From NCBI GenBank assembly GCA_963681965.1, contig OY820579.1:1568001-1632000 (forward strand): 64,000 nt of DNA. The letters run 5' to 3'. This DNA comes from a bacterium. Its GTDB lineage: Bacteria > Electryoneota > JAOADG01. A program made the translations under genes and the position numbers. Of the stretch, positions 5,126 to 64,000 are shown piece by piece. A model generated the notes under the pieces. It did no database searches, had not been told where the DNA came from, and saw nothing but the letters and a program-made list of their open reading frames with translations. Position 1 is the stretch's first letter. Every line of letters starts with the position of its first letter.

Positions 5126-5139
5126 AAAGCAGTCGCATT

Positions 5140-22201: not shown

Positions 22202-24388
22202 ATGAAGCAAAATGTTATCGTTGGCTTGGTGATGCTTCTTACAGTAGTATTGGCCGGATTAGGTTTTGCCTATCCGCGCACAGTACTAATGGAAGACTAC
22301 ACCAACTACTCTTGACCTTACTGCGCGACGGGTCATAATTGGCTCGTTCCATACCTTGCGGGGCAAGGTAGTGTCCAATACATCCAATATCACGAAAATT
22401 ATCCGGGTCCCAATGATCCGTGGTATCTCGCCAATACTCCTCAAGCCGATTCATTGCGTTCCACTTATGGCGTAACCGGTTACCCGACTTATGCGATTGA
22501 TGGTACGACGATTGTCGGATTCGGTCTCTCATCGACTCCCAACACGATCACAACCCGAGTTAATACCCGGTTGGCGATTGCGTCACCAGTGTGGTTGAAG
22601 GTATCGATGGATCCGACCACGAACGATACGATTATCGTGACAGTAAAGGCTGTGGCGAGTTCAGCGATTACGAACAGCTCGCTGAAGATTTACTTGACCG
22701 AAACCCTGGAAACATGGGCAACCCCGGCACCGAATGGTGTGAACCGTTGGGAATTCCCGTTCGTATCGGCTTCACCCTCGGTAGCCGGAATTGCATTTAC
22801 CCATACCGGTACTACGACCGATACACTGACCTTTACCGCCCGGTTTGCACCACGAAGAACTGGTACGGAACCTTATAACAAGGATAGTTGCAGCGTGATT
22901 GCATTCGTGCAGAATAATACTTCACACGAAGTATACCAGTCTGCCCGATGCCACACCATCGTGTCACCGACCAATAACCGAACCTATTTGATCGGTACTG
23001 CACTCCCGATTATCTGGAATCCATACTATACTACCGACATCATGAACATTCTGATCAATCGGAGTTATCCGTCTGGCACTTGGGACACCATCGCTGCCAA
23101 TATTCCGAACTCAGGATATTTCGATTGGACTGCTACCGGACCGATCACCTACAACGCGCGTCTACTGGTGAAATCGACAACGCATCCGCTCAATGTCGAT
23201 ACTTCGATCATCACGATAACCAGTAATACTACTTTGCAAGTGTCACCGAATCCTATTTCGATGACTGTCGCTGCTGGCGATACAGTGCGTACTAACGTAC
23301 TGATCTCGAACAATGGGAGCGCGCCGTTTACCGGTACGCTTGCCGCGACTACTGGATCACTAGGTTATACTTCACTCTCTTCATCACAAGCGTATGGTCC
23401 TGAAGTAGGCTGGTACGACACGGAAGCCGGGGATCCGGGAGCGCACGGCGACGATTCATTATCGGGACCTTATGTGCTGCCATTCAGATTCCCGTTCTAC
23501 GGTACGAATTATACCAACGTCTATATGTGCACCAACGGATATCTCTGCTTCTCAACGGCAGTTGGAGCGTTGTATACAAATGCATCGCTTCCATCCGGTT
23601 ATCCGATGATTTGCCCGTACTGGGACGACTTTGTCGTTAGCGGTACGGCTGTTACCCAAGTCTATGTAGATGCCGATAGTGGTTATGCCATTTTCTCTTG
23701 GCAGAATGTGCCGCGATACGTGACAAGTGGTTCAGGTGGTAACTTCAATTTTGAAGCGATCCTTCGTTCCGACGGTACAGTTGAATTCCAGTATGATGTG
23801 TTAACTGGAACCCTCAACTCGGCTACAATCGGTATTTCGAATGGTACCATTGCCACGCAGGTGATTTACAATCAGACTGCCACGCAGTACTTCGCATACA
23901 AATTCACTCCCGGTGTGATTTGGTCGTCACCAAGTACTACGGTGTTGAGCATTCCGGTCGGTCAGAGCCAAACGATCAGCACACTGTTTGACGCGCGGCG
24001 GTTGACTGCCGGTCAGACATTGAATGGTACATGGGTGATCACAGGTAACATGGCAGCTTCGATTACCGTGCCAGTTTCTATTATCACTACCGCGACTGGC
24101 GTTGCTGAAAACGGAGCAATGGTTCATCGTTACAATCTTGAAAATGCATATCCCAATCCGTTTAACCCGACAACATCGATTCGCTACGAGATTCCGCGTG
24201 CCGATCGAGTTGTGCTGAAACTATACGACAGTAACGGTCGATTGGTCGAAACACTGTTTGATGGAACCAGCATTGCGGGGAAACATACTCAAATGATCGA
24301 TGCAACCAAGCTTGCATCGGGTATGTATTTTGTCAAGATGAATTCTGGCAATTTTAACGCTACTAAGAAAATTATGTTAGTGAAGTAA
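22202..24388 (+). CDS. Secreted Omp28/thioredoxin-fold protein with T9SS type A-like C-terminal domain; probable selenoprotein (in-frame TGA 22313-22315, codon 38)
   Basis: GGAG RBS, signal peptide, VLMEDYTNYS-TGA-PYC, then an unbroken frame (YH..DPW..YGVTGYPTYAIDG) joining the 22454 ORF; C-terminal YPNPFNPTT..LASGMYF..TKKIMLVK. Confidence 0.85.
22327..22370 (+). promoter_or_regulatory. Candidate SECIS hairpins downstream of the in-frame UGA
   Basis: GACGGGTCA-TAAT-TGGCTCGTT (22327-22348, with G-U pairs) and TACCTTGC-GGG-GCAAGGTA (22352-22370). Confidence 0.45.
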
Positions 24389-49896: not shown

Positions 49897-50601
49897 GTGG
49901 CAAAAGTCGCCGAAGGCAGGGAACAGGAAGCAGTTGGACAGATGTTCGATCGGATTTCTCGCCGCTACGACCTTGCCAACCGGTTTCTTTCGATTGGAAT
50001 TGACCAGCTCTGGCGCAGAAAAACCCTCAAGAGCCTAGGGGATTGGTCGGGAAAAATCCATTTGGATGTCGCTTCCGGTACAGGAGATCTTGTACTGATG
50101 AGTGGTCGGTTGAAACATCCCCCCGCGCATCGGATAGCTTTAGATTACTCGCGGAATATGATGCTTTATGGTCAAACCCGCTATCCCGGCGAGCCGATCG
50201 AGTGGGTCCAAGCTTCTGCCGATGCACTTCCCTTACAGGATCGATCCGTCGATATCGTCACAATTGCATTTGGCATCCGGAATGTCGCCAAATATCCCGA
50301 AGCGCTACGTGAATTTCACCGGGTACTCCGTCCAGACGGAAAAGTCGCAGTGCTCGAATTCAGTATGCCGCAAAATCCGATTTGGCATGCGATTTACAGC
50401 TGGTATTTCCGAAATATTCTCCCTCGGATAGGGGGAATGCTCAGCGGTAATTTCGACGCCTATCGTTATCTGCCCGCATCGGTATCGCGGTTCCCTTACG
50501 GCGAAAGCTTTGCAAACTTGCTTACGGAAGCTGGTTTTGGCAAGGTGACTTTTGAACCGCTGACGGGTGGTATCGCTACACTCTATTTGGCTGAAAAGTA
50601 A
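49897..50601 (+). CDS. menG: Demethylmenaquinone methyltransferase (MenG/UbiE)
   Basis: MFDRISRRYDLAN..LS.G.D..WR, LDVASGTGD, AFGIRNV, LEFS, AY.YLP.S; GTG start inferred. Confidence 0.92.
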   Translation: MAKVAEGREQEAVGQMFDRISRRYDLANRFLSIGIDQLWRRKTLKSLGDWSGKIHLDVASGTGDLVLMSGRLKHPPAHRIALDYSRNMMLYGQTRYPGEPIEWVQASADALPLQDRSVDIVTIAFGIRNVAKYPEALREFHRVLRPDGKVAVLEFSMPQNPIWHAIYSWYFRNILPRIGGMLSGNFDAYRYLPASVSRFPYGESFANLLTEAGFGKVTFEPLTGGIATLYLAEK

Positions 50602-50748
50602 TTTGTACTCCTCAAACTGCCACAAAACATCGTTCCCTAGCCCGGAAAATCTCCGTATATTGTGCCATTACAAATCAATTCATATCGGCGATTCATTGCG
50701 GTCGCTTGGCGAACCGACTCCAATCGTTTAACTCAAACAGGTCTACCC

Positions 50749-51705
50749 ATGAAGAATATCCTTATTACCGGCGTTTGCGGTCAAATCGGCACCGAACTGA
50801 TCCGGAAATTGCGTATGGAAATTCCTAACGCGCTGATTCTAGCCACTGACATCAAAGATCCCCCGAAGTCAGTCCATTCGTTTGCCACATTCAAGACCTT
50901 GGATGTGACCAATCCGACCGAAATCGGGCAGATGGTGCGTGACAATCAGATCGACACGGTGTTCCATCTGGCGGCGCTACTGTCAGCGACCGGCGAACGG
51001 AATCCGGCGCTGGCATGGCAAGTCAATATGACGTCATTCTTCGAATTGCTGGAATTGTCACGGAACAATGGCGTGAAAATGGTGATCATGCCATCTTCGA
51101 TCGGTGCCTTCGGACCGACTACTCCGCGCGACATGACGCCGAATCTGACAATCATGCGCCCGACCACGATGTACGGTATCACCAAGGTCACCGGCGAATT
51201 ATTGATGGAATACTATTCCCAGAAGTTCGGATTGGATTGTCGCTCGATGCGATTCCCCGGCATTATCAGCAATGAAACCGAACCGGGTGGCGGGACGACG
51301 GACTACGCGGTTGATTTCTATTACAAAGCGGTGGAAGGAAAGCCGGCAACCTGCTTCGTGAAGGAAGATACGGTTCTGCCATTCATGTATATGCCGGATG
51401 CAATCGATGTATTGTGGCAACTGGCGAATGCGGAAGCGGCACATCTGACGACCCGGACGTACAACGTGACGGCATTCAGCGCATCGGCGAAAGAGTTCGA
51501 GAATGCGATCAAGAAAGTTGTGCTCAGCTTTGCCGTGGAATATGTTCCGGACTACCGTCAGGCAATCGCGGACAGTTGGCCGCGCTCACTCGACGACTCG
51601 CAGGCGAAGAAGGACTGGGGCTGGAACCCGAAATTCGACTTGCACAAGATGTCGGTGGATATGATCAAGCATCTCCGGTTGCGGCTGGCATCGCACCACG
51701 AATAG
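50749..51705 (+). CDS. SDR-type L-threonine 3-dehydrogenase (NAD-dependent epimerase family)
   Basis: GVCGQIGTEL, HLAALLSATGE, PSSIGAFG, YGITK, GGGTTDYA, RQAIADSWP. Confidence 0.88.
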   Translation: MKNILITGVCGQIGTELIRKLRMEIPNALILATDIKDPPKSVHSFATFKTLDVTNPTEIGQMVRDNQIDTVFHLAALLSATGERNPALAWQVNMTSFFELLELSRNNGVKMVIMPSSIGAFGPTTPRDMTPNLTIMRPTTMYGITKVTGELLMEYYSQKFGLDCRSMRFPGIISNETEPGGGTTDYAVDFYYKAVEGKPATCFVKEDTVLPFMYMPDAIDVLWQLANAEAAHLTTRTYNVTAFSASAKEFENAIKKVVLSFAVEYVPDYRQAIADSWPRSLDDSQAKKDWGWNPKFDLHKMSVDMIKHLRLRLASHHE

Positions 51706-51727
51706 ATCGGTGGGACAGGTTAGTAAG

Positions 51728-51761
51728 AATGGCGGATTCGCAAGGATCCGTCATTTTTTTT
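51728..51761 (+). terminator. Intrinsic terminator
   Basis: AATGGCGGATTC-GCAA-GGATCCGTCATT followed by T-run. Confidence 0.85.
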
Positions 51762-52173
51762 AGTGGTGGTTAGGCTATGAAGTTTTGTAATTGCATCATT
51801 GCTTCGGTCATGTTCGGGTTAGTGCTGTGCCGCAATCAAAGAGCTACTGGAGGAAATGGAATATAATGCTAGGTTCTTGATATATAATTAATAAAAAGAT
51901 TGATCTTGCAGAAGATGAAATATAATTATCTCAGTCATCATTGAATGACTGTCGGTAATGAAATACCGTAAGTATTGCGCAGATCACATCTTCTTTTTTG
52001 AATTTGTATCTTATTGTATTGCAATAGCTTTTCGAATTTTGTACCGTGTGGAGTGTTTTCATCCCGTCAAATTATCCAACTTAGAAGCTATGTTTTAAGC
52101 CATTTATACTTTTCTAGATCCACTGATTCACATAAAGATTTAGAATTTTACAATCGAACTCGCCGGAGGTTGT

Positions 52174-55100
52174 ATGAAATTTGTGCCTATTTTTCGATCC
52201 AGCTATGTGTTAATTTTCTCAATATTTCTTCCTATTTTTTCCTTTGCTACAGCCGTTCCACCCACCAGTAATTCATCCAGTGTTCGAGTAAGCATTTCCC
52301 AAACATTAGGGAATCAGCCACTCAGTTTTACTGAGAACAAAGGGCAGTGGGATGATCGGGTCTTATATCAAGGAAAAGCTGGCAATGGCATGACCTACTT
52401 TTTCGAACGGGACGGTTTTACACTGTTAACTGTTGCTCCCGATAAGACCAAACCTCCGATCCTCGATCCGCGCGAAGCCAGTTTACCCGAGGAGATGCGT
52501 AACCCGCTTGCCGCCAAACACTATCCCTTGAAGGGTCATGCTCTGAATCTGCGCTTTGTACGCGATCCGAATCAAGCGAGTCCACAAATTACTGCAACCG
52601 ACTTTTTCGAATGGAACAACAATTACTTCCTCGGTAACGACGAGAAAAAGTGGGCACCCGATTGTAAAAATGCTGGTAAACTCGAATACAAGAATGTCTG
52701 GAATGGAATCGATGTAGTTTATCGCAACAACAACCGGCAGTTGGAGTACGATATCGTCGTTCAACCCGGAGCCAACCCTGCCAGCATGAAGTTTCGCTAT
52801 GATGGTTTGTCGGGTGCAATAGAAACTGTTGATAACGGCAAAGCGATTCAACTTCCTACTTCGCTAGGCAATCTGCGTGAAGAAATTCCCGGTTGTTTCC
52901 AGATCGTGAATGGCATGAAGCGGGATGTTCGAGCAACATTCACCGTATTCTCAAACAGTGAATTCGGATTTGCATTCCCTGATGGGTACGACTCAAATTA
53001 TCCGCTCACGATCGATCCACTAGTGTATAGCACTTATTTGGGCGGAAGTAATTCCGATGAACTCGAAGATATCGCATCCGATGGATCGGGGGGAGTTTAT
53101 GTCGTTGGATTGACTCTTAGCTCCGATTTTCCGACAACTGCAGGCGCTTTAGATCCTACTTTTAATACATACAACGATGTCTTTATATCTCACTTGAACA
53201 GTACCGGTTCAGCGTTATTGTTCAGTACTTATCTCGGTGGCGTATGGAACGATTGTGGTTATGGAATTACGGTTAGTGCTGCCAACAATATTTATATTAC
53301 CGGTACGACTGAAAGCAATTTATTCCCCACAACTACCGGTGCATACGATCAAACCTATAACGGAACTGGCGATATTTTTGTGTCGAAATTAAACTCTACT
53401 GGAAATGCTTTGCTGTTTAGTACTTTTGTAGGTGGTAATAGCTCGGAAACCCCAACCGACATCTACTGTAGCCCAGCGGAAGCTATCACCGTTTCGGGGT
53501 ATTCCTCAAGTTCCAATTTCCCCATGATGAATTCCTATGACGATACCTTCAACGGCGGTGGATCGGATGGGATTCTGTTTCGTTTGATCAACAATGGCGC
53601 AACACTCATTAACAGTACGTATATCGGTGGTTCGGGCTTCGATGCCATCGATGGGATCGATAATAAAAATGAAACGACTTTTGGCGGATCCATGTTTGCG
53701 TGCGGTCGTACCACCAGTACCGATTTTCCAACGACTACCGATGGCTACGACCGAAGCTACAATGGCGGTACATCGGATGGATTTGCCTTTCAATTTAACA
53801 ACAACTATAATTTGGTCTACGGCACCTATATCGGCGGAAGCTCGCTCGATTACTGTTCAGCAATTTCTGCCGACGGTACTGGTGGGGCTTACTTGACCGG
53901 ATCGACCACTAGTAGCAACTTCCCAACTACTATGTTTTCCACTGATCGAACCTACAACGGCGATTACGATTCCTACTTGATCTCCCTTGGGATGGGGAAT
54001 GGAGTTGGATTACAATATGGCACTTATCTCGGTGGTTCGAATTTAGACATGGGTGAAGAATTATATTCCGATCATCATTATGGTGTAACTGTAGTGGGAT
54101 CAACCAGTAGTACTGATTTTCCGACAACTGAAAATGCCTATGATCGTTCTCAGAATGGCGGTTCGGATATCTTCGTCACCAGAATTGGTAATGTCTCAGG
54201 AAATTTCACGTATAGCTACAGCTCATTTCTAGGCGGAAGTGCCGACGATCAAGCCCGAGCGATCGCTTACGATGGAACTGGAGGCATTATCGTTGCCGGC
54301 AAAACGAACGGTGCTTTGTTTCCAACCTCGACGGGTGCACTCGATCCAAGTTGGAATGGAAATTACGATGGAGTTGTTGCACGCATCGATCATCTTATCC
54401 CGCCCAATGCACCGACCGCGCTGAATGCAAGTTCGATCACATCGACATCCATTAGCGGTACTTTTACCGACAATTCTACCTATGAAACCGGATTCAAAGT
54501 TTATTATAGTACTTACAATTCCGCTTATTATTTATATGGAACTATACCGGCACACCCCGGCACCGGCATTGTATCCTATTCACTGAATCTATTACCCTCA
54601 TTGCGATACGACATTCACATCTATGCGATGGATGGTGATGTGTATTCCAATTCGAGTGACTTGTACATGCTATATACTCTTCCTGCCGTTCCGGCAGCAC
54701 CGACTTTGGGAATACCGGGTAACAATTCGATACCGGTTACTGTGAACAACAATGCCACGACCCCTAACACCGATGGGGCAATTTATGCGATTCGAGTGAA
54801 TGGATCGCAATGGGTTCAAGCCGATGGTTCTTTGGGTTCCGAACAGGTTTTTAGTTGGCAGTTACCGTACCAGACTCAAGTCAATGTCATCGGGTTAACA
54901 CCATTCACTCAATATACTTTTGAAGTGGTCGCCAACAATGGATACGGTAGTACCTCTGGATTTAGTCCACCGGCTACCTGTTGGACGACGGGTATCTGGA
55001 CACCTCACACTGATATTTTTACTCCATCTACCGGTGTCCTTCCTGCTACGATTACCGACAACAGTACTGTGAATATTCCGATCTATATCAGTGATACTCG

Positions 55101-58017
55101 AGAAATCACCGATTTAGACATTCGGATCTCGGCGACTCACAATTACGTTAGCGATGTGAGTTTTGTCTTAGTTCACCCGAATGGAACGACTATTGCGACA
55201 CTGATTCAGAACCGTGGTGCAACTGGTCGTAACTTCAATTATATGGCTTTCGACGATGGTGCCGGTTCCAGTATTTCGGGAGCTACAGCGCCATTCACCG
55301 GGGTTTGGCAACCGGAATCTCCGCTATTTGTCTTCAATGGATTACCCGCCAATGGAACGTGGTTGTTACGTTGCATCGATCGCGCATCCCCCGATGCCGG
55401 AACGGTTACATCGATCGAAATGGCATTTGCGAGCAACACACCGCGTGTACCATCCAATCCGTATCCGACGATTGGACAAACGAATATTGGCGCTACTCCG
55501 ACATTAATGTGGGACTGTGAAAACGGAACTTCGTACAATGTCTACTTTGGTACGGACAATCCTCCGACGAATATTGTTTCGTTCGAACAATCTCCGAACT
55601 CATATACCATCACGACACCTTTGACGGACTTGACGACGTATTTCTGGAAGATCGTTGCTTTTAACAGTTACGGTAGCACCGAAGGACCGGTCTGGAGTTT
55701 TACGACGACACCGACACCCGACTACCGGTTATTGGTCGAAAGCACTGGTGCCACCGGCTGTCTGGGTGGTTCGGCGATGCATTTGATTGTGATTACCAAT
55801 ACCGGAACGCTACGAGATTCGATTACCGATATTTTTGCAACATCTCCGCTATACGCCTGCGTAACCGACTCGTTCAATCCGGTGTTGCTGCCGGGTGAAT
55901 CGGTGACGATTCCATTCCGGGTGGATTTGCGCACCGATGCGACAGTTGGTGATTTTGTTACAACAACTGTTTCGGTAACTACCGCAGGTCATTCAGAACC
56001 GTTTACTGGAACGGTTACTACCCAAGTAACACCGGCAAATACACTACCACTGATCGAGAATTTCAGTAGTGATCAGTTTCCACCGCAAGGATGGTCCTAT
56101 ATTAATTTGGATAATTCGATGCGTTGGGTTCGTTTCACTGGGTATCACGGAAACGATGGCGCGGCAATGATGGATTGTTATCATTACAACGTTCTTGAAA
56201 CCGGGGATGCACTGGTACCTCCTCCAGTAACGACGATGGGTATCAGTACCGCTTTTATCGAATTCGACTGGAGCTATACACCTTTGACCGGTTATTCCGA
56301 TACATTGACCCTTCTATACAGCAATTTTACGCTCAGCGAATCGATGGTTTTATGGAGTCGACCACTGGATGGACAATCGTTGGCAGCAGGAACCAACGGT
56401 AGCACTTCCTATCCGGGTGAGGATGGAACGTGGGGTCACGCATTGGTACAAGTGCCTTCTTATCTATTGAACCGACCGACTGTACAATTCCAATTCGTAG
56501 TAACCAACGGTCATGGATCGGCAGTCTTCCTCGATAATGTTAAGATCACTGAACCTTCGATGCTGGTCGAAGCCGATACGGCAAATGGTTATTTGGGCGG
56601 CTCGGCAATGCATACACTTCGTATAACGAATACGGGAACGCAACCGGATTCGATTGTGGACCTTTTCGCGACATCGCCGTTGTATGCCGTTGCTACCGAA
56701 GCTTACAATCGGGTCGTATTACCCAATCAAACTGTGACCGTCCGGTTCCGAGTCGATATCCTCGATACGGCTATTGTCGGAGATTATGTTCTGACCGAAG
56801 TTCATGTCGCTACCCGTGACCATCCGAATCCCTACATTGGTCAAGTGGTTTCGCTTGTTCAACCAGCTTTCCAATTACCATTATTCGAGGATTTCAGCTC
56901 GACGCAATTTCCTCCGGAAGGTTGGTCGTATATCAATCTTGACAACAATTTATCATGGAGTCGATACTCTGGTTATCATGGCAACAATGGTGTGGCGATG
57001 ATGGATTGTTATCATTACAATATTTCCGATCAATCCGATCATCTGGCGTTGCCGCCGATTTCCACAATCGGTGTAAGTTCGGCACAGATCGAGTTCGATT
57101 GGAGCTATTCTCCCTACAGCAGTTTTTCGGATACTTTGATTTTAACCTATCACAACATGACATTGAATGAATCGTTCGAACTTTGGGTGCGTCCGGAAGC
57201 AGGATCTTCGCTGGCTGCCGGAAGCAATGGCAGCACCTCCTATCCAGCAGAGGACGGTACTTGGGGTCACGCGGTTGTGCAAATCCCATCCTTTTTACTA
57301 AATCGTCCTACGGTACATTTCAAATTTGTCGCAGTCAACGGTAACGGATCGTCGATTTTTATCGATAACGTTAAGATATCTGCTCCGATGATTTCCGTTA
57401 CACCCGATCCGCTTGATTTCGGAACCAGTTCGATAGGGCATCTAGTGTCTCGAAACTTGACCATCTCCAATTCCGGAATCGGATCGCTGATCATCAGTCG
57501 AATCGATATTACCGGGGATGGATTTGGCGGAAGTACTGTTTCGAATGTATCGATACCATTTGGATCCTCTTTCGAATACCCGATCAACTGGACTCCGAAT
57601 TCGATCGGTGTTAGTAACGGTACCGCAGTGATCACGCACAATGGACTAAGCTCGCCGACCACTGTGAATTTGGTGGGTGTTGCAATCTCGCCACCAACTG
57701 CACCGCAGAATTTATCAGTCACGTACACTTCTGCCACGCAGACGGCATTTTTGTCGTGGACGCAATCGAGTGGATCGGTCAGTGGGTACAATGTCTATCG
57801 ATATCCGACAGGTTATTTTCTACCACCGACCGTTGGAACTCTTGTCGGGACGACGAATCCGGATTCACCGTGGTTCTACGACAATAATGTAACTGTGAAA
57901 GGATTTTATCGCGTGACGGCATTCTACACATCGTCAGGATCGAGCGAAATTCTATCGATCCCCGCGACGACAGTACGCAACCCAATCGGTGTTCGAAATC
58001 GTGAAATAATGAAGTAG
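52174..58017 (+). CDS. Large secreted multidomain protein: SBBP beta-propeller repeats, FN3, proprotein convertase P domain, duplicated 277-aa module, Ig-like and FN3-like C-terminus
   Basis: Signal peptide, FTENKGQW, IDPLVYSTYLGGS and T.S.DFPTT repeats, ITDLDIRI..HNYVSD..NGTWLL P-domain; GGAGG RBS. Confidence 0.88.
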   Translation: MKFVPIFRSSYVLIFSIFLPIFSFATAVPPTSNSSSVRVSISQTLGNQPLSFTENKGQWDDRVLYQGKAGNGMTYFFERDGFTLLTVAPDKTKPPILDPREASLPEEMRNPLAAKHYPLKGHALNLRFVRDPNQASPQITATDFFEWNNNYFLGNDEKKWAPDCKNAGKLEYKNVWNGIDVVYRNNNRQLEYDIVVQPGANPASMKFRYDGLSGAIETVDNGKAIQLPTSLGNLREEIPGCFQIVNGMKRDVRATFTVFSNSEFGFAFPDGYDSNYPLTIDPLVYSTYLGGSNSDELEDIASDGSGGVYVVGLTLSSDFPTTAGALDPTFNTYNDVFISHLNSTGSALLFSTYLGGVWNDCGYGITVSAANNIYITGTTESNLFPTTTGAYDQTYNGTGDIFVSKLNSTGNALLFSTFVGGNSSETPTDIYCSPAEAITVSGYSSSSNFPMMNSYDDTFNGGGSDGILFRLINNGATLINSTYIGGSGFDAIDGIDNKNETTFGGSMFACGRTTSTDFPTTTDGYDRSYNGGTSDGFAFQFNNNYNLVYGTYIGGSSLDYCSAISADGTGGAYLTGSTTSSNFPTTMFSTDRTYNGDYDSYLISLGMGNGVGLQYGTYLGGSNLDMGEELYSDHHYGVTVVGSTSSTDFPTTENAYDRSQNGGSDIFVTRIGNVSGNFTYSYSSFLGGSADDQARAIAYDGTGGIIVAGKTNGALFPTSTGALDPSWNGNYDGVVARIDHLIPPNAPTALNASSITSTSISGTFTDNSTYETGFKVYYSTYNSAYYLYGTIPAHPGTGIVSYSLNLLPSLRYDIHIYAMDGDVYSNSSDLYMLYTLPAVPAAPTLGIPGNNSIPVTVNNNATTPNTDGAIYAIRVNGSQWVQADGSLGSEQVFSWQLPYQTQVNVIGLTPFTQYTFEVVANNGYGSTSGFSPPATCWTTGIWTPHTDIFTPSTGVLPATITDNSTVNIPIYISDTREITDLDIRISATHNYVSDVSFVLVHPNGTTIATLIQNRGATGRNFNYMAFDDGAGSSISGATAPFTGVWQPESPLFVFNGLPANGTWLLRCIDRASPDAGTVTSIEMAFASNTPRVPSNPYPTIGQTNIGATPTLMWDCENGTSYNVYFGTDNPPTNIVSFEQSPNSYTITTPLTDLTTYFWKIVAFNSYGSTEGPVWSFTTTPTPDYRLLVESTGATGCLGGSAMHLIVITNTGTLRDSITDIFATSPLYACVTDSFNPVLLPGESVTIPFRVDLRTDATVGDFVTTTVSVTTAGHSEPFTGTVTTQVTPANTLPLIENFSSDQFPPQGWSYINLDNSMRWVRFTGYHGNDGAAMMDCYHYNVLETGDALVPPPVTTMGISTAFIEFDWSYTPLTGYSDTLTLLYSNFTLSESMVLWSRPLDGQSLAAGTNGSTSYPGEDGTWGHALVQVPSYLLNRPTVQFQFVVTNGHGSAVFLDNVKITEPSMLVEADTANGYLGGSAMHTLRITNTGTQPDSIVDLFATSPLYAVATEAYNRVVLPNQTVTVRFRVDILDTAIVGDYVLTEVHVATRDHPNPYIGQVVSLVQPAFQLPLFEDFSSTQFPPEGWSYINLDNNLSWSRYSGYHGNNGVAMMDCYHYNISDQSDHLALPPISTIGVSSAQIEFDWSYSPYSSFSDTLILTYHNMTLNESFELWVRPEAGSSLAAGSNGSTSYPAEDGTWGHAVVQIPSFLLNRPTVHFKFVAVNGNGSSIFIDNVKISAPMISVTPDPLDFGTSSIGHLVSRNLTISNSGIGSLIISRIDITGDGFGGSTVSNVSIPFGSSFEYPINWTPNSIGVSNGTAVITHNGLSSPTTVNLVGVAISPPTAPQNLSVTYTSATQTAFLSWTQSSGSVSGYNVYRYPTGYFLPPTVGTLVGTTNPDSPWFYDNNVTVKGFYRVTAFYTSSGSSEILSIPATTVRNPIGVRNREIMK

Positions 58018-58037
58018 TCAACATCATTTAAGTAAGG

Positions 58038-58074
58038 AAAAATCCCCTGCACCATCGATGCAGGGGATTTTCTT
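58038..58074. terminator. Bidirectional terminator between convergent genes
   Basis: AAAATCCCCTGCA-loop-TGCAGGGGATTTT. Confidence 0.85.
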
Positions 58075-59134
58075 ATTTCATTAATTGAGAATTGCGGAGA
58101 GTGTCCAGAATTTTCTGCAACCCATCGGGTAACGGAGCAATAAGATTTAGCGGAGCATGGGTTTCGGGGTGGGGGACGGTCAGTTCGTGGGCATGAAGGA
58201 ACTGTCCAGCACAATGCGCGAGTCCGATCGCGGCAAGGTTACGCTGCGCGGCGGAGAGCCGTCCCAATTGACGGTTGCGACCGCCGTAGAGTGGATCGCC
58301 GAAGACCGGATGTCCGAGATGCGCCAGATGGACGCGGATCTGATGCGTGCGTCCAGTTTCGGGAAAACATTTGATCAAGGTCCATAATCCAAACCGCTCG
58401 ACGACTTCCCAGCGTGTGATGGCGGCTTTTCCATCGGGTACGATCGCGAACATCGCACGTTCGTACGGGTGTCGTCCGATGGGAGCGTCGATTCGTCCGG
58501 TAGGTTTGTTGAGATCGCCCCAGACGAGTGCGAGATAGGTCTTGTGAACAGTGCGGTCTTTGAATGCTTGTGCCAATTTCTGTTGACTGTGGAGGGTCTT
58601 GGCAGCGAGCAGAATACCGCTGGTGTCTTTGTCCAAGCGATGAATAATACCGGGGCGGAGCCCTTCAGTGTCGCCCCCTTCGAGTCCGGGCGAGAGGTCC
58701 TCGCCGGTCTGTGCGACATGCCAGAGCAGCGCATTGACAATCGTGCCGCTTCGGAACGACTGTGCCGGGTGCACGACGATGCCCGCCGGTTTGTTGATCG
58801 CGATGATCACATCGTCTTCGAACAAGATATCGAGTGGGATATTTTCCGGGATCAACTCGGGTGCGGGAGGGAGAAACGGTACATAGAAGATTTGATCGCC
58901 CGGTCGCACCTGATACGAGGCGCGTGCCGGCTGATTGTTGACGATGACATTGGCAAGATCAATCCACGCCTTGACGCGAGAGCGGCTCATGCCGGTACGC
59001 ATCGCGAGATAGATGTCCAAGCGCGTTGGCATCTGACCCGGATCGACGGTGATCGAGTGCGACAATTCGCCGGTGGATGCATCCGCCAGTTTCTTCGCCG
59101 ATGGGTTTTGATGAATGTATTTTTTCTGAGTCAA
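58073..59134 (-). CDS. rluD: RluA-family 23S rRNA pseudouridine synthase (RluD-like)
   Basis: S4 domain RLD.YL..SRSR, NKPAGIVVHP, GIIHRLDKDTSG, ETGRTHQIRVH, GDPLYG, LHA. Confidence 0.9.
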   Translation of the reverse strand: MTQKKYIHQNPSAKKLADASTGELSHSITVDPGQMPTRLDIYLAMRTGMSRSRVKAWIDLANVIVNNQPARASYQVRPGDQIFYVPFLPPAPELIPENIPLDILFEDDVIIAINKPAGIVVHPAQSFRSGTIVNALLWHVAQTGEDLSPGLEGGDTEGLRPGIIHRLDKDTSGILLAAKTLHSQQKLAQAFKDRTVHKTYLALVWGDLNKPTGRIDAPIGRHPYERAMFAIVPDGKAAITRWEVVERFGLWTLIKCFPETGRTHQIRVHLAHLGHPVFGDPLYGGRNRQLGRLSAAQRNLAAIGLAHCAGQFLHAHELTVPHPETHAPLNLIAPLPDGLQKILDTLRNSQLMK

Positions 59135-59283
59135 GTGTCTTCCATGAGATTTCGTGATAGTAATGTAGTGAATCCGGTGGGGAAGAGCGAGTTGGTGCCT
59201 GGGAAAGGATGGGTGTTGGGGAGTAGGAGGTAGGGAATGGGAAAAGAAGAAATGATACGTGAATGGGTGGACACAAGAGGATT

Positions 59284-59620
59284 GCCGATACGGAGATCGG
59301 CAGTACTGCCCAACTCCGATTGGGCATCTTGTAATCTATTTCCATCTTTACCTATTGAAAAGAGAAAAGGATTAAAATACACAAGAGCCGATGCGGAGAT
59401 CGGCAGTACTGCCCAACTCCGATTAGGCATCTTGTAATCTTTTTCCATCTTTACCGATTGAAAAGAGAAAAGGATTAAAATACACAAGAGCCGATTCGGA
59501 GATCGGCAGTACTACCCAACTCAGATTGGGCATCTTGTAATCTTTTTCCATCTTTACCGATTGAAAAGAGAAAGGGATTAAAATACAAAAGAGCCGATTC
59601 GGAGATCGGCAGTACTACCT
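59284..59620. repeat. Tandem array of 103-bp REP-like units (3 full + 1 partial)
   Basis: Units start 59284, 59387, 59490, 59593; near-identical; each with paired hairpins around AGTACT. Confidence 0.93.
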
Positions 59621-59653
59621 CCGGTAATCCACAAAAATAGAGTCACAAAAGGC

Positions 59654-59676
59654 GGTCAGAATAAATTCTGACCTAC
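59654..59676 (-). repeat. Single REP-like palindrome
   Basis: Minus strand GTA-GGTCAGAAT-TT-ATTCTGACC (starts GTAG). Confidence 0.55.
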
Positions 59677-59723
59677 AGCAATAACATTTGGCAGCAACGG
59701 GGAATCGCCGTATAGAGAAATAA

Positions 59724-60455
59724 TTATTTCGATAGCACGATGTTGACGATTTCGGCGGAAATCTTTTTCGACCACTCGGCGGAGACGTGCATCGGTTTGA
59801 AACCGAATTTGCGCGTAGCGCCCGGCTTCAGCATCAGCGCCGGGTCGGGCTGTCCGACGACGCTGGTGGCGGCGACCGGAGAATAGGTGTCGGATGCAAT
59901 CGGATGTCCGGCGGCATTGAGGAAATTGATTTTGATTTCGACTTTCGCGAGCGCCTGTTTGCCGGTATTGCGAATTTCACCATAGACGCTCGGTTCGTCG
60001 TATCTCGATTGCTGTGCGCGGAGATTCAGAATCTTGATTTTGGGGACATAGGCTTTTTCGTCGGGTGTCATCTCGAGGCGCACGGAATCGACCTTTGCCG
60101 TGACGCCGTTCATGTTCATGGTCGAGAGATTTTTGATCATCGTGTTGGCTTTGGCGACCATCTTCTGGTCGATGTTGTACATGTAGTAACACGCGGCGAT
60201 GAGGCTCGGGACGAGGATCACGAAGCTGATTTTTTTGATCCGGACGATCGCCTCGATGAGTGCGGAGACAAGTGTCAGGATACCGATGGTGGCAGTGATT
60301 GCCATCAGGTAGATGAAGAATTTCGCGATGCCGGAGATCTCGCCGAAGTTCTGCGTAAAGGTCGAGCCGAAGCCGGACAGCAGGAACAGGATTAACTCGC
60401 CAGCGGTGGCGAGGATACAAATGATAAAAATCGTGACGCCGATGGATAGTTTCAT
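59724..60455 (-). CDS. Membrane protein with C-terminal FxLYD-like Ig domain
   Basis: Three N-terminal TM segments; VYGEIRNTG..VEIKINFLNAAG..I..LKPGAT..F. Confidence 0.65.
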   Translation of the reverse strand: MKLSIGVTIFIICILATAGELILFLLSGFGSTFTQNFGEISGIAKFFIYLMAITATIGILTLVSALIEAIVRIKKISFVILVPSLIAACYYMYNIDQKMVAKANTMIKNLSTMNMNGVTAKVDSVRLEMTPDEKAYVPKIKILNLRAQQSRYDEPSVYGEIRNTGKQALAKVEIKINFLNAAGHPIASDTYSPVAATSVVGQPDPALMLKPGATRKFGFKPMHVSAEWSKKISAEIVNIVLSK

Positions 60456-60568
60456 GGTGATCTCACGATGGTTGAGAAACGATAGGAAAGATATAAAATT
60501 GTTTAGAATTTTCTATGGAGGATCTAGAAAATAGCAAACAAAAAATAAGATCATTGAATTTTTGAAAA

Positions 60569-61288
60569 TTAGATTTCAATTTTACATTCAATTCCTAAAC
60601 TTGCAATACCTAAACCATTTAAAGCCCAAATACCCATCTGTTTTGCATAGTCACTTGCAGAAGGCTCAAAACTGGTTGTAATCCAGTATGCAAAAACAAC
60701 TGGCTTTAAAATGCTATCTTTGTAGAGAGGGTCTGATGGATTATTAATCCTGAAAATTGAACCGCCGACGAAAGTTCTTAATTCATTTAAACATACTTTA
60801 TTATCACTTCTTTTATTTTTTGCTTGACCGATTACAGAAATACTACACCAATCAGGCATAAATCTTGAAAGTTTAAATTTCTTTGCAGAGAAATCAACTC
60901 CTCCATCATTTTTGCCACCCACTGTAACAGCTTCGCCACCTAATTCCTGTAATATTTTTGTACAGAAAATTTCAAACTCTGTTGATGAAAGTTGATTAAT
61001 TTTGTTTAAATATTTACTTTCATTAGTATTATGTTTTGTGTAATATCCATCCTCATCTATGGAAAAGTCAGGATTTATTCCACTTTCCATACATTCGTCT
61101 CTCATTTCTTGTAATCGATTAATTATTTTTGGTAAAATTTTCTCAATATGTTCTAAACGCTCTTCGATTGAGCAATTGCAGGTTCTGGAAGATAGTTCAG
61201 CTTCAATGACAGAGGAGATTTTGTGAACACCGACATGCTCGATGTTACGAACCCACAGGGCAAATGTGTTTTCATTAGGAAGTGGCAT
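60569..61288 (-). CDS. Mrr-like restriction endonuclease (Mrr_cat, D..QxK)
   Basis: LSSTEFEIFC..IL, DGGVDF, IGQAK, ELRTFVG, ITTSFEPSA..YA. Confidence 0.85.
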   Translation of the reverse strand: MPLPNENTFALWVRNIEHVGVHKISSVIEAELSSRTCNCSIEERLEHIEKILPKIINRLQEMRDECMESGINPDFSIDEDGYYTKHNTNESKYLNKINQLSSTEFEIFCTKILQELGGEAVTVGGKNDGGVDFSAKKFKLSRFMPDWCSISVIGQAKNKRSDNKVCLNELRTFVGGSIFRINNPSDPLYKDSILKPVVFAYWITTSFEPSASDYAKQMGIWALNGLGIASLGIECKIEI

Positions 61289-61289
61289 T

Positions 61290-62393
61290 TTAATAATGAA
61301 GTTTGATGTTTGATTCTTCTATGGCAAGAATTCTTGATTTTAATTTTTCTAATACATCTTTCTGCTCTTCATTTAAATCCTTTACTATATCTACACTTAA
61401 TGTTGACAATATTTTCTCAGTACGAATTACTTCCATTAACCAGTCAGTTTTATGGAAAAGCTCTAGCATTGTTAAAGCGTTAGAAAGTGAACCATCTTTA
61501 CTTCTAAATTTGCTTAAGGCAGTTGGTTCACCAATTATTTTTGATAGTTCGCGGATGCTATGTGCAGTTGGTAATTTTTTCTCTTCTGAAAGTTGTCCAT
61601 TATCTTGTATCTCACCTAGAATCCAAGTAAAAAACTCATGTAATTTGTCTTTCTGTTTAAATTCTCGGGTTTCATCATCCCATTCAAGCCAATTTTTTAC
61701 TGAAGGTTGTTTAAAAACTTCTTCAAAATAACTGTAATGACTCGGTTCAACGAATTCTCCAAATTCTTCATCCTGTTTCATTTGTTCTAGGGCGTTGAAT
61801 GATCGCCATAAAAGATTCGCCGCCCGAGTTGATAACCCTAGACTTTGGGCAGCGATCTGTGGACTTTCTCCACGCTTTCTAAGTTCTGCAATAGTTCTAG
61901 CTTTTTGATAAGCACCCCATTCTCTTATACCTGAAACATGTCGTAATCCAGGAAGAATCCACCTAGAGTTCTCAGGTGCATCGTCTACTAATAGAAGTGC
62001 TTCAAAATTTGTATAATTACGGATTTGTTCATCACTAAGATCAGATCGACCTGTTTCATGCAATTCCATTAGCCATTTCAAAGCAGTAATTCTTCTATTT
62101 CCCTCAACAACTACATATTTATCTGTTGGATTTTTTCCCGCCCATTTTCTTACTACTAACCTATCCATTGGAAGAAACCCGAGATTATATATTGTATCTC
62201 GTAATTCTGCCACTTCAAACCGTTTGTCTTTCATTCGCTCAAATGTACTTGATTGAACTTTATCCTCTTCAAATCGACGCTCAGGTATTAAATCAAATTC
62301 TTGTCCTAATTCAGCGAATCGGGGATTATTAGGATCTAATAGTAATTTTTCTAAAGATAAATTGATTGGTTTTAAAAAACTCGTTAATAGCAT
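61290..62393 (-). CDS. ParB/Srx-like N-terminal domain protein with HTH
   Basis: LLLDPNNPRF, L.DTI...GF, YVVVEGNRRITALK, then SPQIAAQSLGLSTRAA helix-turn-helix; AAGGAG RBS. Confidence 0.82.
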   Translation of the reverse strand: MLLTSFLKPINLSLEKLLLDPNNPRFAELGQEFDLIPERRFEEDKVQSSTFERMKDKRFEVAELRDTIYNLGFLPMDRLVVRKWAGKNPTDKYVVVEGNRRITALKWLMELHETGRSDLSDEQIRNYTNFEALLLVDDAPENSRWILPGLRHVSGIREWGAYQKARTIAELRKRGESPQIAAQSLGLSTRAANLLWRSFNALEQMKQDEEFGEFVEPSHYSYFEEVFKQPSVKNWLEWDDETREFKQKDKLHEFFTWILGEIQDNGQLSEEKKLPTAHSIRELSKIIGEPTALSKFRSKDGSLSNALTMLELFHKTDWLMEVIRTEKILSTLSVDIVKDLNEEQKDVLEKLKSRILAIEESNIKLHY

Positions 62394-62629
62394 AACACAT
62401 CTCCTTAATAAATATTTACTAATATTGATTTAGTGTGAACTAATGAAAATATATACTTTATTGTTGTCAATCCAACTTAAAGTATAACTGGTTAAAAAAA
62501 TACTTTGTGAATATAGAAGTTTAATGTTGATTTAATATATTGCGATTAACATTCAAAGTCAACTTTTATTCAGATTACAGGCGCCCCTTTCGGAGCGCCT
62601 GTGGTTTGTGTACTGCCTGTCGGAAAAGA

Positions 62630-64000
62630 TTATTTCGGTGTGACGGTCACGTAAGTCTTGGTGTCGCCCCGCTGGATGCGGAACAGGATCGCTTCGGACT
62701 GATTCTTCAGTTCGCCGGTCACCTTCCGCCAGTCGGCAAGATTCTCGATCTTCTTGCGGTCGACTTCAATAATGACATCCCCTTCGCGCAAGCGATTGTC
62801 CGCCGGTGAATCGTCTTCAATGCGCGTGATGACCACGCCGTTATCGGCAGTGATGCGGAGCTGACGCGCGCGAGTCGATCCGGCTTCGGTCACTTCGATG
62901 CCGAGCCAATTCTTCTCATTGTCGCGGTCCTTCACCGTTCCTTTGCCCGACGCGGCAATGTACTCGCTACGGTCGCCAAGGATAATCTCATACTTCTTGG
63001 TGTCGCCGTCACGCCAAATATCGACCTTCAACTTGTCGCCGGGGAAATGATCGGCTACAAAGAGGCGGAACTGTGTCGGATCGGTAAAGGTCTTCCCTTC
63101 GATCCTGGTAATGACGTCGCCGCTGTGCAGCCCGGCTTTGTCGGCAGGGGTGTTTTCCTGCACGTTGTCAAGGAAGATACCGGTGACGCTCTTGGGCGCT
63201 TTCATCGCGGCGCGTTTCTCATCGTCGAATGCGGTCGGCACGAGTCCAAGATATCCGCGCTCAACTTTCCCCTTAGCGTGAAGTTGCGCCATCACACGCT
63301 GTGCAAGATTCGACGGGATGGCAAAGCCGATGCCCTGCCCCTGCGTATTGACGGCGGAATTGATGCCGACGACTTCGCCGTGGATGTTACAGAGTGGTCC
63401 GCCGGAATTGCCGAAATTGATCGATGCATCGGTCTGAATGAAGTCCTGAAACGACGGACCACCGCCGGCAATCGGGAGATTCGAACGTCCTTTCGCACTG
63501 ATGACGCCGACAGTGACTGTCCAATCGAGACCGAACGGGTTGCCGATCGCAATTGCCCACTCGCCGACGCGCAATTTCTCGCTGTCTGCCCACTTCGCCA
63601 CGCGGTCTTCCGGAAATGTCTCTTTCACTTTGATCAATGCGAGATCGGTTTCAGGATCGCGCCCGACAATTTCCGCCGATAGTTCGGTGTCGTCGGTGAA
63701 TTTAACGGTGATTTTATCTGCCTTCTCGACGACGTGATTGTTGGTCATGATCAAGCCGTCGGTACCGACGATGAAGCCGCTGCCGCCCGACTGTGTCTTC
63801 GGGGCTTTGCGCTTCTGCTTGTTCTGCGGGGTCTGCTCGTCGTCAAACGGGTTGAACGGATCGAATAAATTAAAGGGGTGGAAGTCCATCAACGGTTCTT
63901 CGGAGCCTTTTTTCTCGACCTGAATATTGACGACAATTGGTTTCATTTTTTCGGCAATCGCGACAAACGGCGATTCGCCATTGGCAATTATGTTCGACGC
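62630..64000 (-). CDS. htrA: HtrA/DegP serine protease with two PDZ domains (5' end outside window)
   Basis: GSGFIV..TNNHVV, DLAL, IQTDASINFGNSGGPL, two PDZ domains; frame stays open to 64000 (ASNIIANGESPFVAIAEK). Confidence 0.93.
   Translation of the reverse strand, partial: ASNIIANGESPFVAIAEKMKPIVVNIQVEKKGSEEPLMDFHPFNLFDPFNPFDDEQTPQNKQKRKAPKTQSGGSGFIVGTDGLIMTNNHVVEKADKITVKFTDDTELSAEIVGRDPETDLALIKVKETFPEDRVAKWADSEKLRVGEWAIAIGNPFGLDWTVTVGVISAKGRSNLPIAGGGPSFQDFIQTDASINFGNSGGPLCNIHGEVVGINSAVNTQGQGIGFAIPSNLAQRVMAQLHAKGKVERGYLGLVPTAFDDEKRAAMKAPKSVTGIFLDNVQENTPADKAGLHSGDVITRIEGKTFTDPTQFRLFVADHFPGDKLKVDIWRDGDTKKYEIILGDRSEYIAASGKGTVKDRDNEKNWLGIEVTEAGSTRARQLRITADNGVVITRIEDDSPADNRLREGDVIIEVDRKKIENLADWRKVTGELKNQSEAILFRIQRGDTKTYVTVTPK

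Follow-up and report, generated by a model that had tools for sequence, protein, structure and literature searches.

A conserved pair of a ParB/KorB/Noc-like protein and an Mrr-type nuclease is a candidate restriction-like defense module

GmrS and GmrD, which were first described as two separate polypeptides, stand with GmrSD, BrxU, and SspE for systems in which a nucleoside triphosphate (NTP)-binding domain of the ParB superfamily and a DNA-binding part are coupled to a nuclease without any methyltransferase. In GmrSD and SspE, modified DNA is reported to be recognized by the DUF262 domain, a member of the ParB superfamily, whose NTPase activity turns on the nuclease (PMC12065111). ParB, KorB, and Noc are DNA clamps that depend on cytidine triphosphate (CTP), and the available sections of a 2025 survey of the ParB-CTPase fold describe orphan proteins with this fold as common and linked to mobile elements (PMC12704722). 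The cleavage domain of Mrr, MspJI, AspBHI, and FokI relies on a separate DNA-recognition module. Here, we describe a pair of adjacent genes that encode a ParB/KorB/Noc-like protein and an Mrr-type nuclease and compare it with these systems. The pair lies at positions 60569 to 62393 of a stretch of 64,000 nucleotides (nt) from a bacterium of the Electryoneota (assembly GCA_963681965.1, contig OY820579.1, positions 1,568,001 to 1,632,000), which we refer to as the window.

Gene 1 (62393..61290, minus strand) is an open reading frame (ORF) of 367 amino acids (aa) for an orphan ParB/KorB/Noc-like protein composed of a ParB-CTPase fold, a helix-turn-helix (HTH), and a helical C-terminal domain, and gene 2 (61288..60569, minus strand) is an ORF of 239 aa for a nuclease subunit of the Mrr_cat PD-(D/E)xK type. 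A first-pass annotation of the window had described an AT-rich two-gene operon between a GC-rich htrA gene and a membrane-protein gene, with gene 2 starting 1 nt past the stop of gene 1. This description is accurate: both ORFs lie exactly where it had placed them, a single nt separates the TAA of gene 1 (61292-61290) from the ATG of gene 2 when read directly from the sequence, and the G+C content of the pair is 0.341 compared to 0.502 in the flanks and 0.455 in the whole window. On balance, the sequence-based evidence set out below tips us towards reading the pair as a self-contained, horizontally mobile two-gene nuclease module that would constitute an unnamed restriction-like defense against phages or plasmids.

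The pairing of gene 1 and gene 2 is conserved across at least ten phyla as one tightly coupled operon. A scan of species-representative genomes returned 64 loci, of which 61 contain a gene-1-like ORF according to profiles of both families. A gene-2-like ORF follows downstream on the same strand in 56 of these 61 loci, 50 of which have a gap of -158 to +17 nt between the two ORFs. The first-pass annotation's test of conservation elsewhere thus came out in favor of the pair. The five loci without gene 2 comprise two cut off by a contig edge (L017, L035), two with gene 1 fragments only (L059, L062), and a distant relative (L064). In the Lamprocystis loci L014 and L039, the genes do not abut and are 277-401 nt apart. 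Bacteria available in culture that carry the pair include Aeromonas taiwanensis LMG 24683 (L023), Flavobacterium sp. RHBU_24 (L005), Sphingobium terrigena EO9 (L011), and Lamprocystis purpurea DSM 4197 (L014). Both genes have diverged together, as seen from a Mantel r of 0.89 for 45 pairs that none of 2000 permutations reached (four loci with broken genes were excluded), and r is 0.80 inside a close clade of 33. Gene 2 is the faster-evolving of the two, with a mean p-distance of 0.71 vs. 0.53 for gene 1.

Clustering of all neighboring ORFs revealed no third conserved family, and the next most common one, a Dam-like methylase, is present in only eight loci. We had considered this enzyme as a possible cognate methylase and rejected it because, in the loci examined for this, its own type II restriction gene adjoins (L019, L038, L040) or the loci form one close clade (L038/L040/L041). 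The pair is thus not the remnant of a larger restriction-modification (R-M) locus, which had been named at the outset as an outcome that would speak against a new system, since no third family is conserved beside it. The G+C content of the pair is below that of its flanks in 45 of the 46 loci with enough flanking sequence (mean difference -8.7 points; Wilcoxon p 5e-9). Furthermore, a quick maximum-likelihood tree of gene 1 contains sister pairs that cross phyla, such as Ignavibacteriota with Flavobacterium (support 98) or Syntrophaceae with Sideroxydans (99), and Verrucomicrobiota and Acidobacteriota rows fall inside a mainly proteobacterial clade. The low G+C content of the pair and these cross-phylum sister pairs indicate that the module moves horizontally as a two-gene unit.

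This compact format could also be that of a toxin-antitoxin or addiction module in which gene 2 would act as a toxin by cutting DNA, while gene 1 would bind DNA as antitoxin and autorepressor. The pair would then persist because cells die upon its loss, whether or not it also contributes to abortive infection. A small, translationally coupled operon with an HTH protein encoded first and a nuclease second that has spread by horizontal transfer would fit this interpretation, and toxin-antitoxin genes indeed adjoin the pair in some loci (RelE in L011, HicB in L012, AbiE in L028). However, gene 1 is large and, by the p-distances given above, far more conserved than gene 2, which is the reverse of what is usual for antitoxins, as these tend to be small and to evolve fast, and its invariant residues are those of the NTP pocket. 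Intact gene 2 also persists beside an apparently broken gene 1 that carries a frameshift in L037 (3971-5013), is truncated and has lost its last ~50 residues in L015 (3116-4027), and is split in L033 (6001-7056), though assembly errors are possible in these cases. Moreover, a scan of the regions upstream of gene 1 in 49 loci revealed no conserved operator or parS-like word; the shared words of 7-10 nt were AT-rich and no more frequent than in shuffles. Taken together, we find a toxin-antitoxin module unlikely, though deserving of some weight. The inverse kind of decay is also seen, with gene 2 being split beside an intact gene 1 in L012 (2506-3302) and L054 (downstream of 7074), and all these decayed copies could be assembly errors in metagenome bins.

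The nuclease assignment of gene 2 is straightforward. Pfam Mrr_cat matches residues 98-175 (E 1.6e-7; 31.9 bits at a cut-off of 21), and the catalytic set E106 ... D128-G-G-V-D132 ... Q155-A-K157 (60818..60973, minus strand) is invariant in all 43 aligned homologues, so that the Mrr_cat motif set is as intact as had been noted from the translation. This invariance implies that the nuclease is under selection to stay active. The AlphaFold2 (AF2) model is confident (predicted local distance difference test, pLDDT, of 92.5), and its Foldseek matches are MspJI (4f0p; E 1e-6), FokI (2fok; 1.6e-4), and AspBHI (4oc8; 3e-4), with MspJI also being found at 1e-4 when the family profile is compared to PDB sequences. 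Matches in PADLOC are weak and limited to the nuclease domain (PDC-S02 at 1.3e-7, mREase_IV at 2.9e-4).

The N-terminal ~97-aa region of gene 2 (60998..61288, minus strand) is composed of a long helix and small strands and belongs to no recognized family: Residues 1-97 have no Pfam match and the fold matches cover only 155-166 columns, which agrees with its earlier description as an unrecognized domain. We regard this region as a candidate adaptor to gene 1. An exhaustive search found 120 cluster representatives of gene 2 at E<=1e-3 and 86 at E<=1e-10, all of them 65-316 aa long, so no fused ParB-Mrr forms were seen. A word-indexed search had returned the query alone, and the resulting impression of an orphan gene was discarded as a limit of the index because BLASTP, hidden Markov model, and exhaustive searches found the family.

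The fold of gene 2 is also distantly similar to EndoMS/NucS and Holliday-junction resolvases (Foldseek ranks 10-40), as would suit a housekeeping pair for DNA repair or processing. However, the best fold matches are restriction enzymes, and the sporadic distribution that mixes phyla, the foreign composition, and the presence of some broken copies all argue against such a role, which we therefore consider highly improbable.

For gene 1, structure is more informative than sequence. The AF2 model (pLDDT 84.6) begins with an alpha/beta N-domain and continues through a helical middle part into a long C-terminal domain that is likewise helical. Foldseek searches of the PDB with this model have KorB (8qa9/8qa8), Noc (7ol9/7nfu), and CDP-bound ParB (6sdk/7bnk) as top matches with E-values of 3e-6 to 1e-4 and a probability of 1.00 across ~250 columns that correspond to the N-domain and the HTH, along with further nucleotide-bound ParB structures (7bnr, 7bm8) and Spo0J. 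In a viral structure library, the model matches ParB/Spo0J-HTH proteins, and proteins with a "GmrSD N-terminal domain" appear only at ranks 31 and 50. No curated family of Pfam or NCBIfam, including Pfam ParBc, matches gene 1 significantly, and searches of PDB chain sequences with the family profile and with residues 1-190 find no ParB. The kinship with ParB is therefore one at the level of the fold, though PF02195 is annotated in 12-63% of the members of the nearest Atlas clusters. The N-domain is thus predicted to adopt a ParB/Srx fold that contains a GxxR P-motif and is directly followed by an HTH, in line with the ParB fold and HTH proposed for gene 1 in the first-pass annotation.

The gene 1 family is large, with 1041 homologues at E<=1e-3 among proteins of 201-643 aa. 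Its closest non-self members are 52-60% identical and come from many phyla, with a few of them being named "ParB N-terminal domain-containing protein" by NCBI. An alignment of 20 members from different phyla has a mean column identity of 69% with the invariant blocks LLDPNNPRFAELG, EGNRR..AL.WL, PGLRHVSG..EWG.YQKA, and an HTH-like QS.GLS...N..R. The two motifs that had first drawn attention to a ParB-like fold, LDPNNPR (residues 19-25) and EGNRR (97-101), are indeed present and invariant in 20 of the 20 aligned homologues. Within the ParB-CTPase-fold N-terminal domain (about residues 1-140; 61974..62393, minus strand), as delimited by secondary structure and fold matches, we take DPNNPR (residues 20-25; 62319..62336, minus strand) to occupy the place of the ParB Box I-type motif. 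GNRR (residues 98-101; 62091..62102, minus strand) corresponds to the GxxR phosphate-binding P-motif, which the available part of the fold survey names Box II (PMC12704722, section 9).

The most conserved stretch of the family, LPGLRHVSGIREWGAYQKA (residues 147-165; 61899..61955, minus strand), lies between the N-domain and the HTH and is predicted to be flexible, with pLDDT <50 at residues 148-156. Its residues P148, G149, L150, R151, H152, V153, S154, G155, E158, W159, G160, Y162, Q163, K164, and A165 are invariant, and the stretch is also kept in gp98 of phage Wphi. The HTH DNA-binding region (about residues 161-206; 61776..61913, minus strand; helices 161-173, 178-184, and 189-206) aligns with the HTH of ParB, KorB, and Noc in the fold matches and has an HTH-like sequence match at residues 169-196. 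The all-helical C-terminal domain (residues 207-367; 61293..61775, minus strand) is conserved in the family and in the PDC-M38A fusions described below. It has no match among Pfam, NCBIfam, or PDB sequences and is a candidate dimerization or partner-docking domain.

With the plasmid regulator KorB and ParB as nearest solved folds, gene 1 might instead be a partition protein or silencer and gene 2 the nuclease of a mobile element, serving, e.g., in entry exclusion or processing, so that the pair would maintain or regulate the element with no part in host immunity. Orphan ParBs are often located on mobile elements according to the available part of the survey (PMC12704722), the pair has a low G+C content, and integrase, resolvase, or insertion sequence genes are found nearby in a few loci (L020, L007, L029). 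What argues against a mobile-element function is that the two genes alone are conserved, with no gene for ParA, replication, integration, or transfer. The same is true for the window, where we confirmed the earlier statement that no parA, DNA methyltransferase, integrase, or transposase is present among the 50 ORFs >=100 aa. Furthermore, 72,556 plasmid records contained only three weak matches to gene 1 (23-27% identity), and the loci are mostly chromosomal and located between housekeeping genes. We thus hold this explanation to be rather improbable.

The genomic neighborhood of the pair points towards immunity. We scanned 218 of 226 neighbors (two genes >=120 aa on each side) with PADLOC and obtained matches for 19 of 112 in L001-L030 at E<=1e-10 and for 27 of 106 in L031-L058 at E<=1e-20. 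As a control, only one of 48 other genes of the window had a match at E<=1e-10, which is spurious (an HtrA protease domain). The first-pass annotation had suggested looking for an enrichment near defense genes, and the difference between 46 of 218 neighbors and 1 of 48 window genes has the expected direction (Fisher p 6e-4), but the control is crude since it consists of 48 genes of a single genome and the E-value limits are unequal (1e-10, 1e-20), and the loci are not all independent, with L038/L040/L041 and L014/L039 being close kin. We consider the enrichment suggestive rather than proven.

After setting generic matches aside, a credible defense gene is located within two genes of the pair in 21 of 58 loci. 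These genes include R-M systems of type II (L019, L025, L038, L040, L041), type IIG (L007, L047), and type I (L032), besides a type III methylase with AbiE (L028) and a type IV enzyme (L039), whose gene for a methyl-directed restriction enzyme of 980 aa follows the pair on the opposite strand. The others are AbiP2/DRT (L006), Ptu-like systems (L018, L031), HEC-01A (L026), prokaryotic Argonaute (pAgo; L042, L051), a SoFic-like gene (L049), Wadjet JetAB (L053), Dnd/Pbe (L055), a Mokosh-like system (L057), and the candidate PDC-S05 with a RiboL-PSP HEPN gene (L001). In this last locus, the HEPN gene (5129-5827) immediately precedes the pair in the same orientation and itself follows the ORF6N/PDC-S05 gene; the available part of a 2013 survey has a table entry that reads "RiboL-PSP-HEPN ... 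operon with ParB" (PMC3710099). We did not count matches that we judged generic, i.e., mad2 (an S-adenosylmethionine methyltransferase, L001), mad3/mad8 (UvrA; L009, L016), PDC-S12 (UPF0149/SEC-C, L013), pVip (radical SAM-HD, L019), and DndA/SspA (cysteine desulfurase, L033). Matches to a PD-T4-6-like kinase with PDC-M21C (L034) and to PDC-S48/DEDDh (L044) were left as uncertain.

Relatives of gene 1 recur in other architectures. The PADLOC model PDLC04607 of PDC-M38A matches gene 1 with E 2.2e-49 but only at positions 10-358 of 715. In full-length PDC-M38A proteins (P0122 and P0123; 708 aa; E 1e-294), the whole gene-1-like module is located at the N-terminus and fused to an AbiL-like AAA_15/AAA_21 ATPase, so that the same sensor-like module is combined with another effector. 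The remaining four PDC-M38A models cover only the ATPase. These two ATPase fusions are the only longer forms of gene 1 that our search found, but so small a number is weak evidence against further fusions.

Homologues with 24-26% identity are encoded by 15 mostly P2-like phage genomes. In phages Wphi (L065, 96-3266: gp98, gp96, mth) and vB_EcoM-12474III (L066, 3980-7016), the gene-1-like gene adjoins the portal gene Q and is followed by a co-oriented partner without annotation (gp96). It faces the gene of a divergent C5 cytosine methylase. The site beside gene Q in P2-like phages is known as a hotspot at which phages carry defense genes. Wphi gp98 aligns with the gene 1 family across 257 columns including an RH..G.KEW motif (hhalign probability 98.7, E 4.7e-16). 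Its neighbor gp96 (330-369 aa) matches nothing in Pfam or PADLOC and resembles gene 2 only weakly around GDGGLD (hhalign probability 10.9).

Finally, in distantly related Bacteroidota that form a subclade with 33-38% identity to gene 1, the pair lies directly behind a long pAgo gene (L042, 3886-7817; L051, 3888-7817; PADLOC pAgo E 7.6e-234 and 3.7e-274). In L042, pAgo ends 21 nt before gene 1, and in L059 (2806-6474), which has only a gene 1 fragment, the neighboring gene groups with the pAgo family by clustering. The pAgo gene and the pair may thus form a three-gene operon in this subclade.

These architectures raise the question of whether the pair serves as an accessory effector cassette for other immune systems such as pAgo, R-M, or AbiL-like ATPases and would not function on its own. 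The pAgo-linked subclade, the fusion of a gene-1-like module to an AbiL-like ATPase in PDC-M38A, and the C5 methylase that accompanies the relatives in P2-type phages are all compatible with this idea. However, most loci including the window lack such a partner, with 37 of 58 having no PADLOC-recognized neighbor within two genes, and no third family is conserved, so that we see a merely accessory function as distinctly unlikely.

If the pair indeed is a stand-alone defense module, a dimer of gene 1 would bind DNA via its HTH, and NTP binding and hydrolysis would switch its state by closing, sliding, or oligomerizing. In the "on" state, gene 1 would recruit or activate gene 2, probably through contacts between its own helical C-terminal domain and the N-terminal ~95 residues of gene 2, and the nuclease would then cut DNA. 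As the pair is not accompanied by a methyltransferase, the host must have some other means of sparing its own DNA. One option is that only modified or otherwise marked foreign DNA would trigger the response, i.e., a type IV logic like that of GmrS/GmrD and SspE, and the other is that the system would be held off until infection. In a more specific and rather doubtful version of this scenario, an NTP switch of the canonical ParB type, i.e., from the class of CTP-gated clamps, has come to serve an immune nuclease as its sensor, with the clamp loading on foreign DNA where it slides or accumulates and licenses the FokI/MspJI-like subunit in trans.

The first-pass annotation had already suggested a nucleotide-gated sensor or clamp that is coupled to a nuclease effector, and our results support this in part: The conservation of the pair, its defense context, the ParB/KorB/Noc fold, and the lack of a match to a named system speak for it, while nucleotide binding or gating, clamp behavior, contact between both proteins, and anti-phage activity are what we infer from them. 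A predicted complex of gene 1 and gene 2 from two alignments scored 0.27 at a mark of 0.32 and was counted neither for nor against binding.

Besides the limits of the neighborhood analysis mentioned above, several other observations weigh against a defense module built around a ParB-type switch. The islet of the window sits alone among housekeeping genes, as do 37 of 58 related loci in which the pair is found between ordinary genes (e.g., thrS-infC, parE-parC, uvrA, gatB, nrd, or feoB). Gene 1 resembles ParB by fold only, as its matches to Pfam ParBc and PDB sequences are not significant, and the stretch at the position of ParB Box III differs and is modeled at low confidence, which means that NTP hydrolysis or clamp closure may not occur. 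According to the available part of the fold survey, neither sequence nor AlphaFold3 predicts the nucleotide specificity of the ParB-CTPase fold (PMC12704722, section 9). The conservation of gene 1 across phyla, as given by the mean column identity above, is unusually high for an immune gene, and no conserved operator or parS-like word turned up in the upstream regions of the 49 loci.

In the window, the pair forms a low-G+C islet of ~2.1 kb (about 60500..62600, no strand) that spans from the hairpin 3' of htrA to the start of the membrane-protein gene, with a G+C content of 0.30-0.39 over about 60400-62600 vs. 0.52-0.58 in htrA and the genes downstream. A ribosome-binding site AAGGAG (62401..62406, minus strand) can be read directly 7 nt 5' of the gene 1 ATG. 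Further upstream, a candidate sigma-70-like promoter TTGACT-17-TATATT (62534..62562, minus strand; 10/12 matches) is weak because the region's 12 such sites are no excess over the 8.3 +/- 2.8 of shuffles; our scan for promoters and terminators did not rise above the shuffled level. Two copies of the 12-mer TAAATATTTACT, with the palindrome TAAATATTTA inside it, are present in the islet, one within gene 2 (61007-61018) and the other just 5' of the ribosome-binding site of gene 1 (62409-62420), with the chance estimate being based on shuffles of the whole window, not of the AT-rich islet. No tRNA was found in 50000-64000, no flanking direct repeats are convincing as marks of insertion, and an Rfam scan of 58900-62800 matched no family.

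The upstream neighbor is the gene of an HtrA/DegP-type protease (62630-63946; Trypsin_2 and two PDZ domains) with a G+C-rich hairpin at its end, and the downstream neighbor encodes a membrane protein (59724-60455) with weak matches to FxLYD/DUF2393. Beyond the latter lie four tandem copies of a 103-nt unit (59253-59619; cores 93-100% alike), followed by an RluD-like pseudouridine synthase gene. Each repeat holds an imperfect palindrome (GCCGAT.CGGAGATCGGCAGTACTGCC...); the copies match no Rfam family and are crossed by spurious ORFs. The remaining genes of the window are housekeeping genes, e.g., for efflux pumps, the shikimate and menaquinone pathways, polysulfide reductase, and ribosomal protein S1. 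Separately, the window encodes a secreted protein of 1947 aa with DUF7948, SBBP beta-propeller repeats, and fibronectin type III domains (52174-58017) and a protein with a type IX secretion sorting domain (22454-24388), the latter being suggestive of a host within the Fibrobacterota-Chlorobiota-Bacteroidota group.

If the pair is a defense system, the bacterial immune repertoire would gain a module of only 1.8 kb that is very widespread and as yet unannotated, with a gene 1 that has no Pfam or NCBIfam family despite >1000 relatives. It would also link the recently recognized ParB-CTPase switch fold, whose orphans mostly have no known function, to restriction-like immunity. Recognition and cleavage would then be coupled in a novel manner, with an NTP switch of the clamp type delivering a nuclease to DNA in trans. 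If a ParB clamp really were the immune sensor, the pair would be the first example of immunity controlled by a clamp of this type, widespread with >1000 homologues in more than ten phyla, and its sensor module would have been re-used with the AbiL-like ATPase, in the pAgo operon, and in the P2-phage cassettes. The recurrence of gene-1-like modules with other effectors suggests a portable sensor that can be used to find further systems.

Comparison with described systems sets the pair apart in each case. PADLOC-DB 2.0.0, which was used for all PADLOC comparisons, contains no full-system match, so that the earlier impression of a pairing without a named counterpart holds. A full-text literature search found no description of a ParB-like and Mrr-like pair, and Mrr is not mentioned in the available main text of the 2025 survey (PMC12704722). 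PDC-M38A is defined by the AbiL-like AAA_15/AAA_21 ATPase that is absent in the window; gene 2 matches no PDC-M38 model and gene 1 covers only the non-ATPase half of one PDC-M38A model, so the pair is not PDC-M38. Among the PD-Lambda-5 models, those for PD-Lambda-5_A match gene 1 solely in its ParB N-domain (best E 2e-13; about positions 5-170 of profiles with 428-592), and none matches gene 2. In the available part of its description, PD-Lambda-5 is a compacted R-M and abortive infection system that its authors (Vassallo et al. 2022) label "methyltransferase" (PMC9519451), whereas no gene for a DNA methyltransferase is present in the window. The gp98/gp96/mth cassette of P2-like phages (Wphi, vB_EcoM-12474III, L-413C, P2) shares the combination of a gene 1 homologue and a co-oriented partner but differs in the low identity of 24-26%, a gp96 that is only weakly similar to gene 2, and the presence of a C5 cytosine methylase.

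Among the ParB proteins proper, ParABS differs because no parA is adjacent in the window and none is conserved in related loci. Gene 1 shares the fold of N-domain and HTH and the invariant GxxR P-motif with ParB, KorB, and Noc and is, like Noc and KorB, an orphan without parA (PMC12704722, section 5, in the part available). However, it has no sequence-level match to them, a different C-terminal domain, and a nuclease as constant partner, and in place of the Box III region of ParB it has the family-specific LPGLRHVSG..W.YQKA, with no parS-like site found upstream in the 49 loci. Gene 2 has the catalytic fold and the D...D...QxK motif of Mrr, MspJI, AspBHI, and the FokI cleavage domain but no Mrr_N winged-helix, SRA-like, or FokI recognition domain, so that recognition would have to come from gene 1. 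The class of GmrS/GmrD, GmrSD, BrxU, and SspE follows the same overall logic as proposed for the pair. In contrast to these systems, gene 1 has no Pfam or PADLOC match (E<=0.1) to DUF262, GmrSD, BrxU, SspE, or NsnA models, carries EGNRR instead of a DGQQR-type motif, and has canonical ParB, KorB, and Noc with their HTH as nearest folds. The GmrSD class uses a DUF1524 His-Me (HNH) nuclease, whereas the nuclease of the pair is an Mrr_cat PD-(D/E)xK enzyme that is encoded as a separate polypeptide in every case seen.

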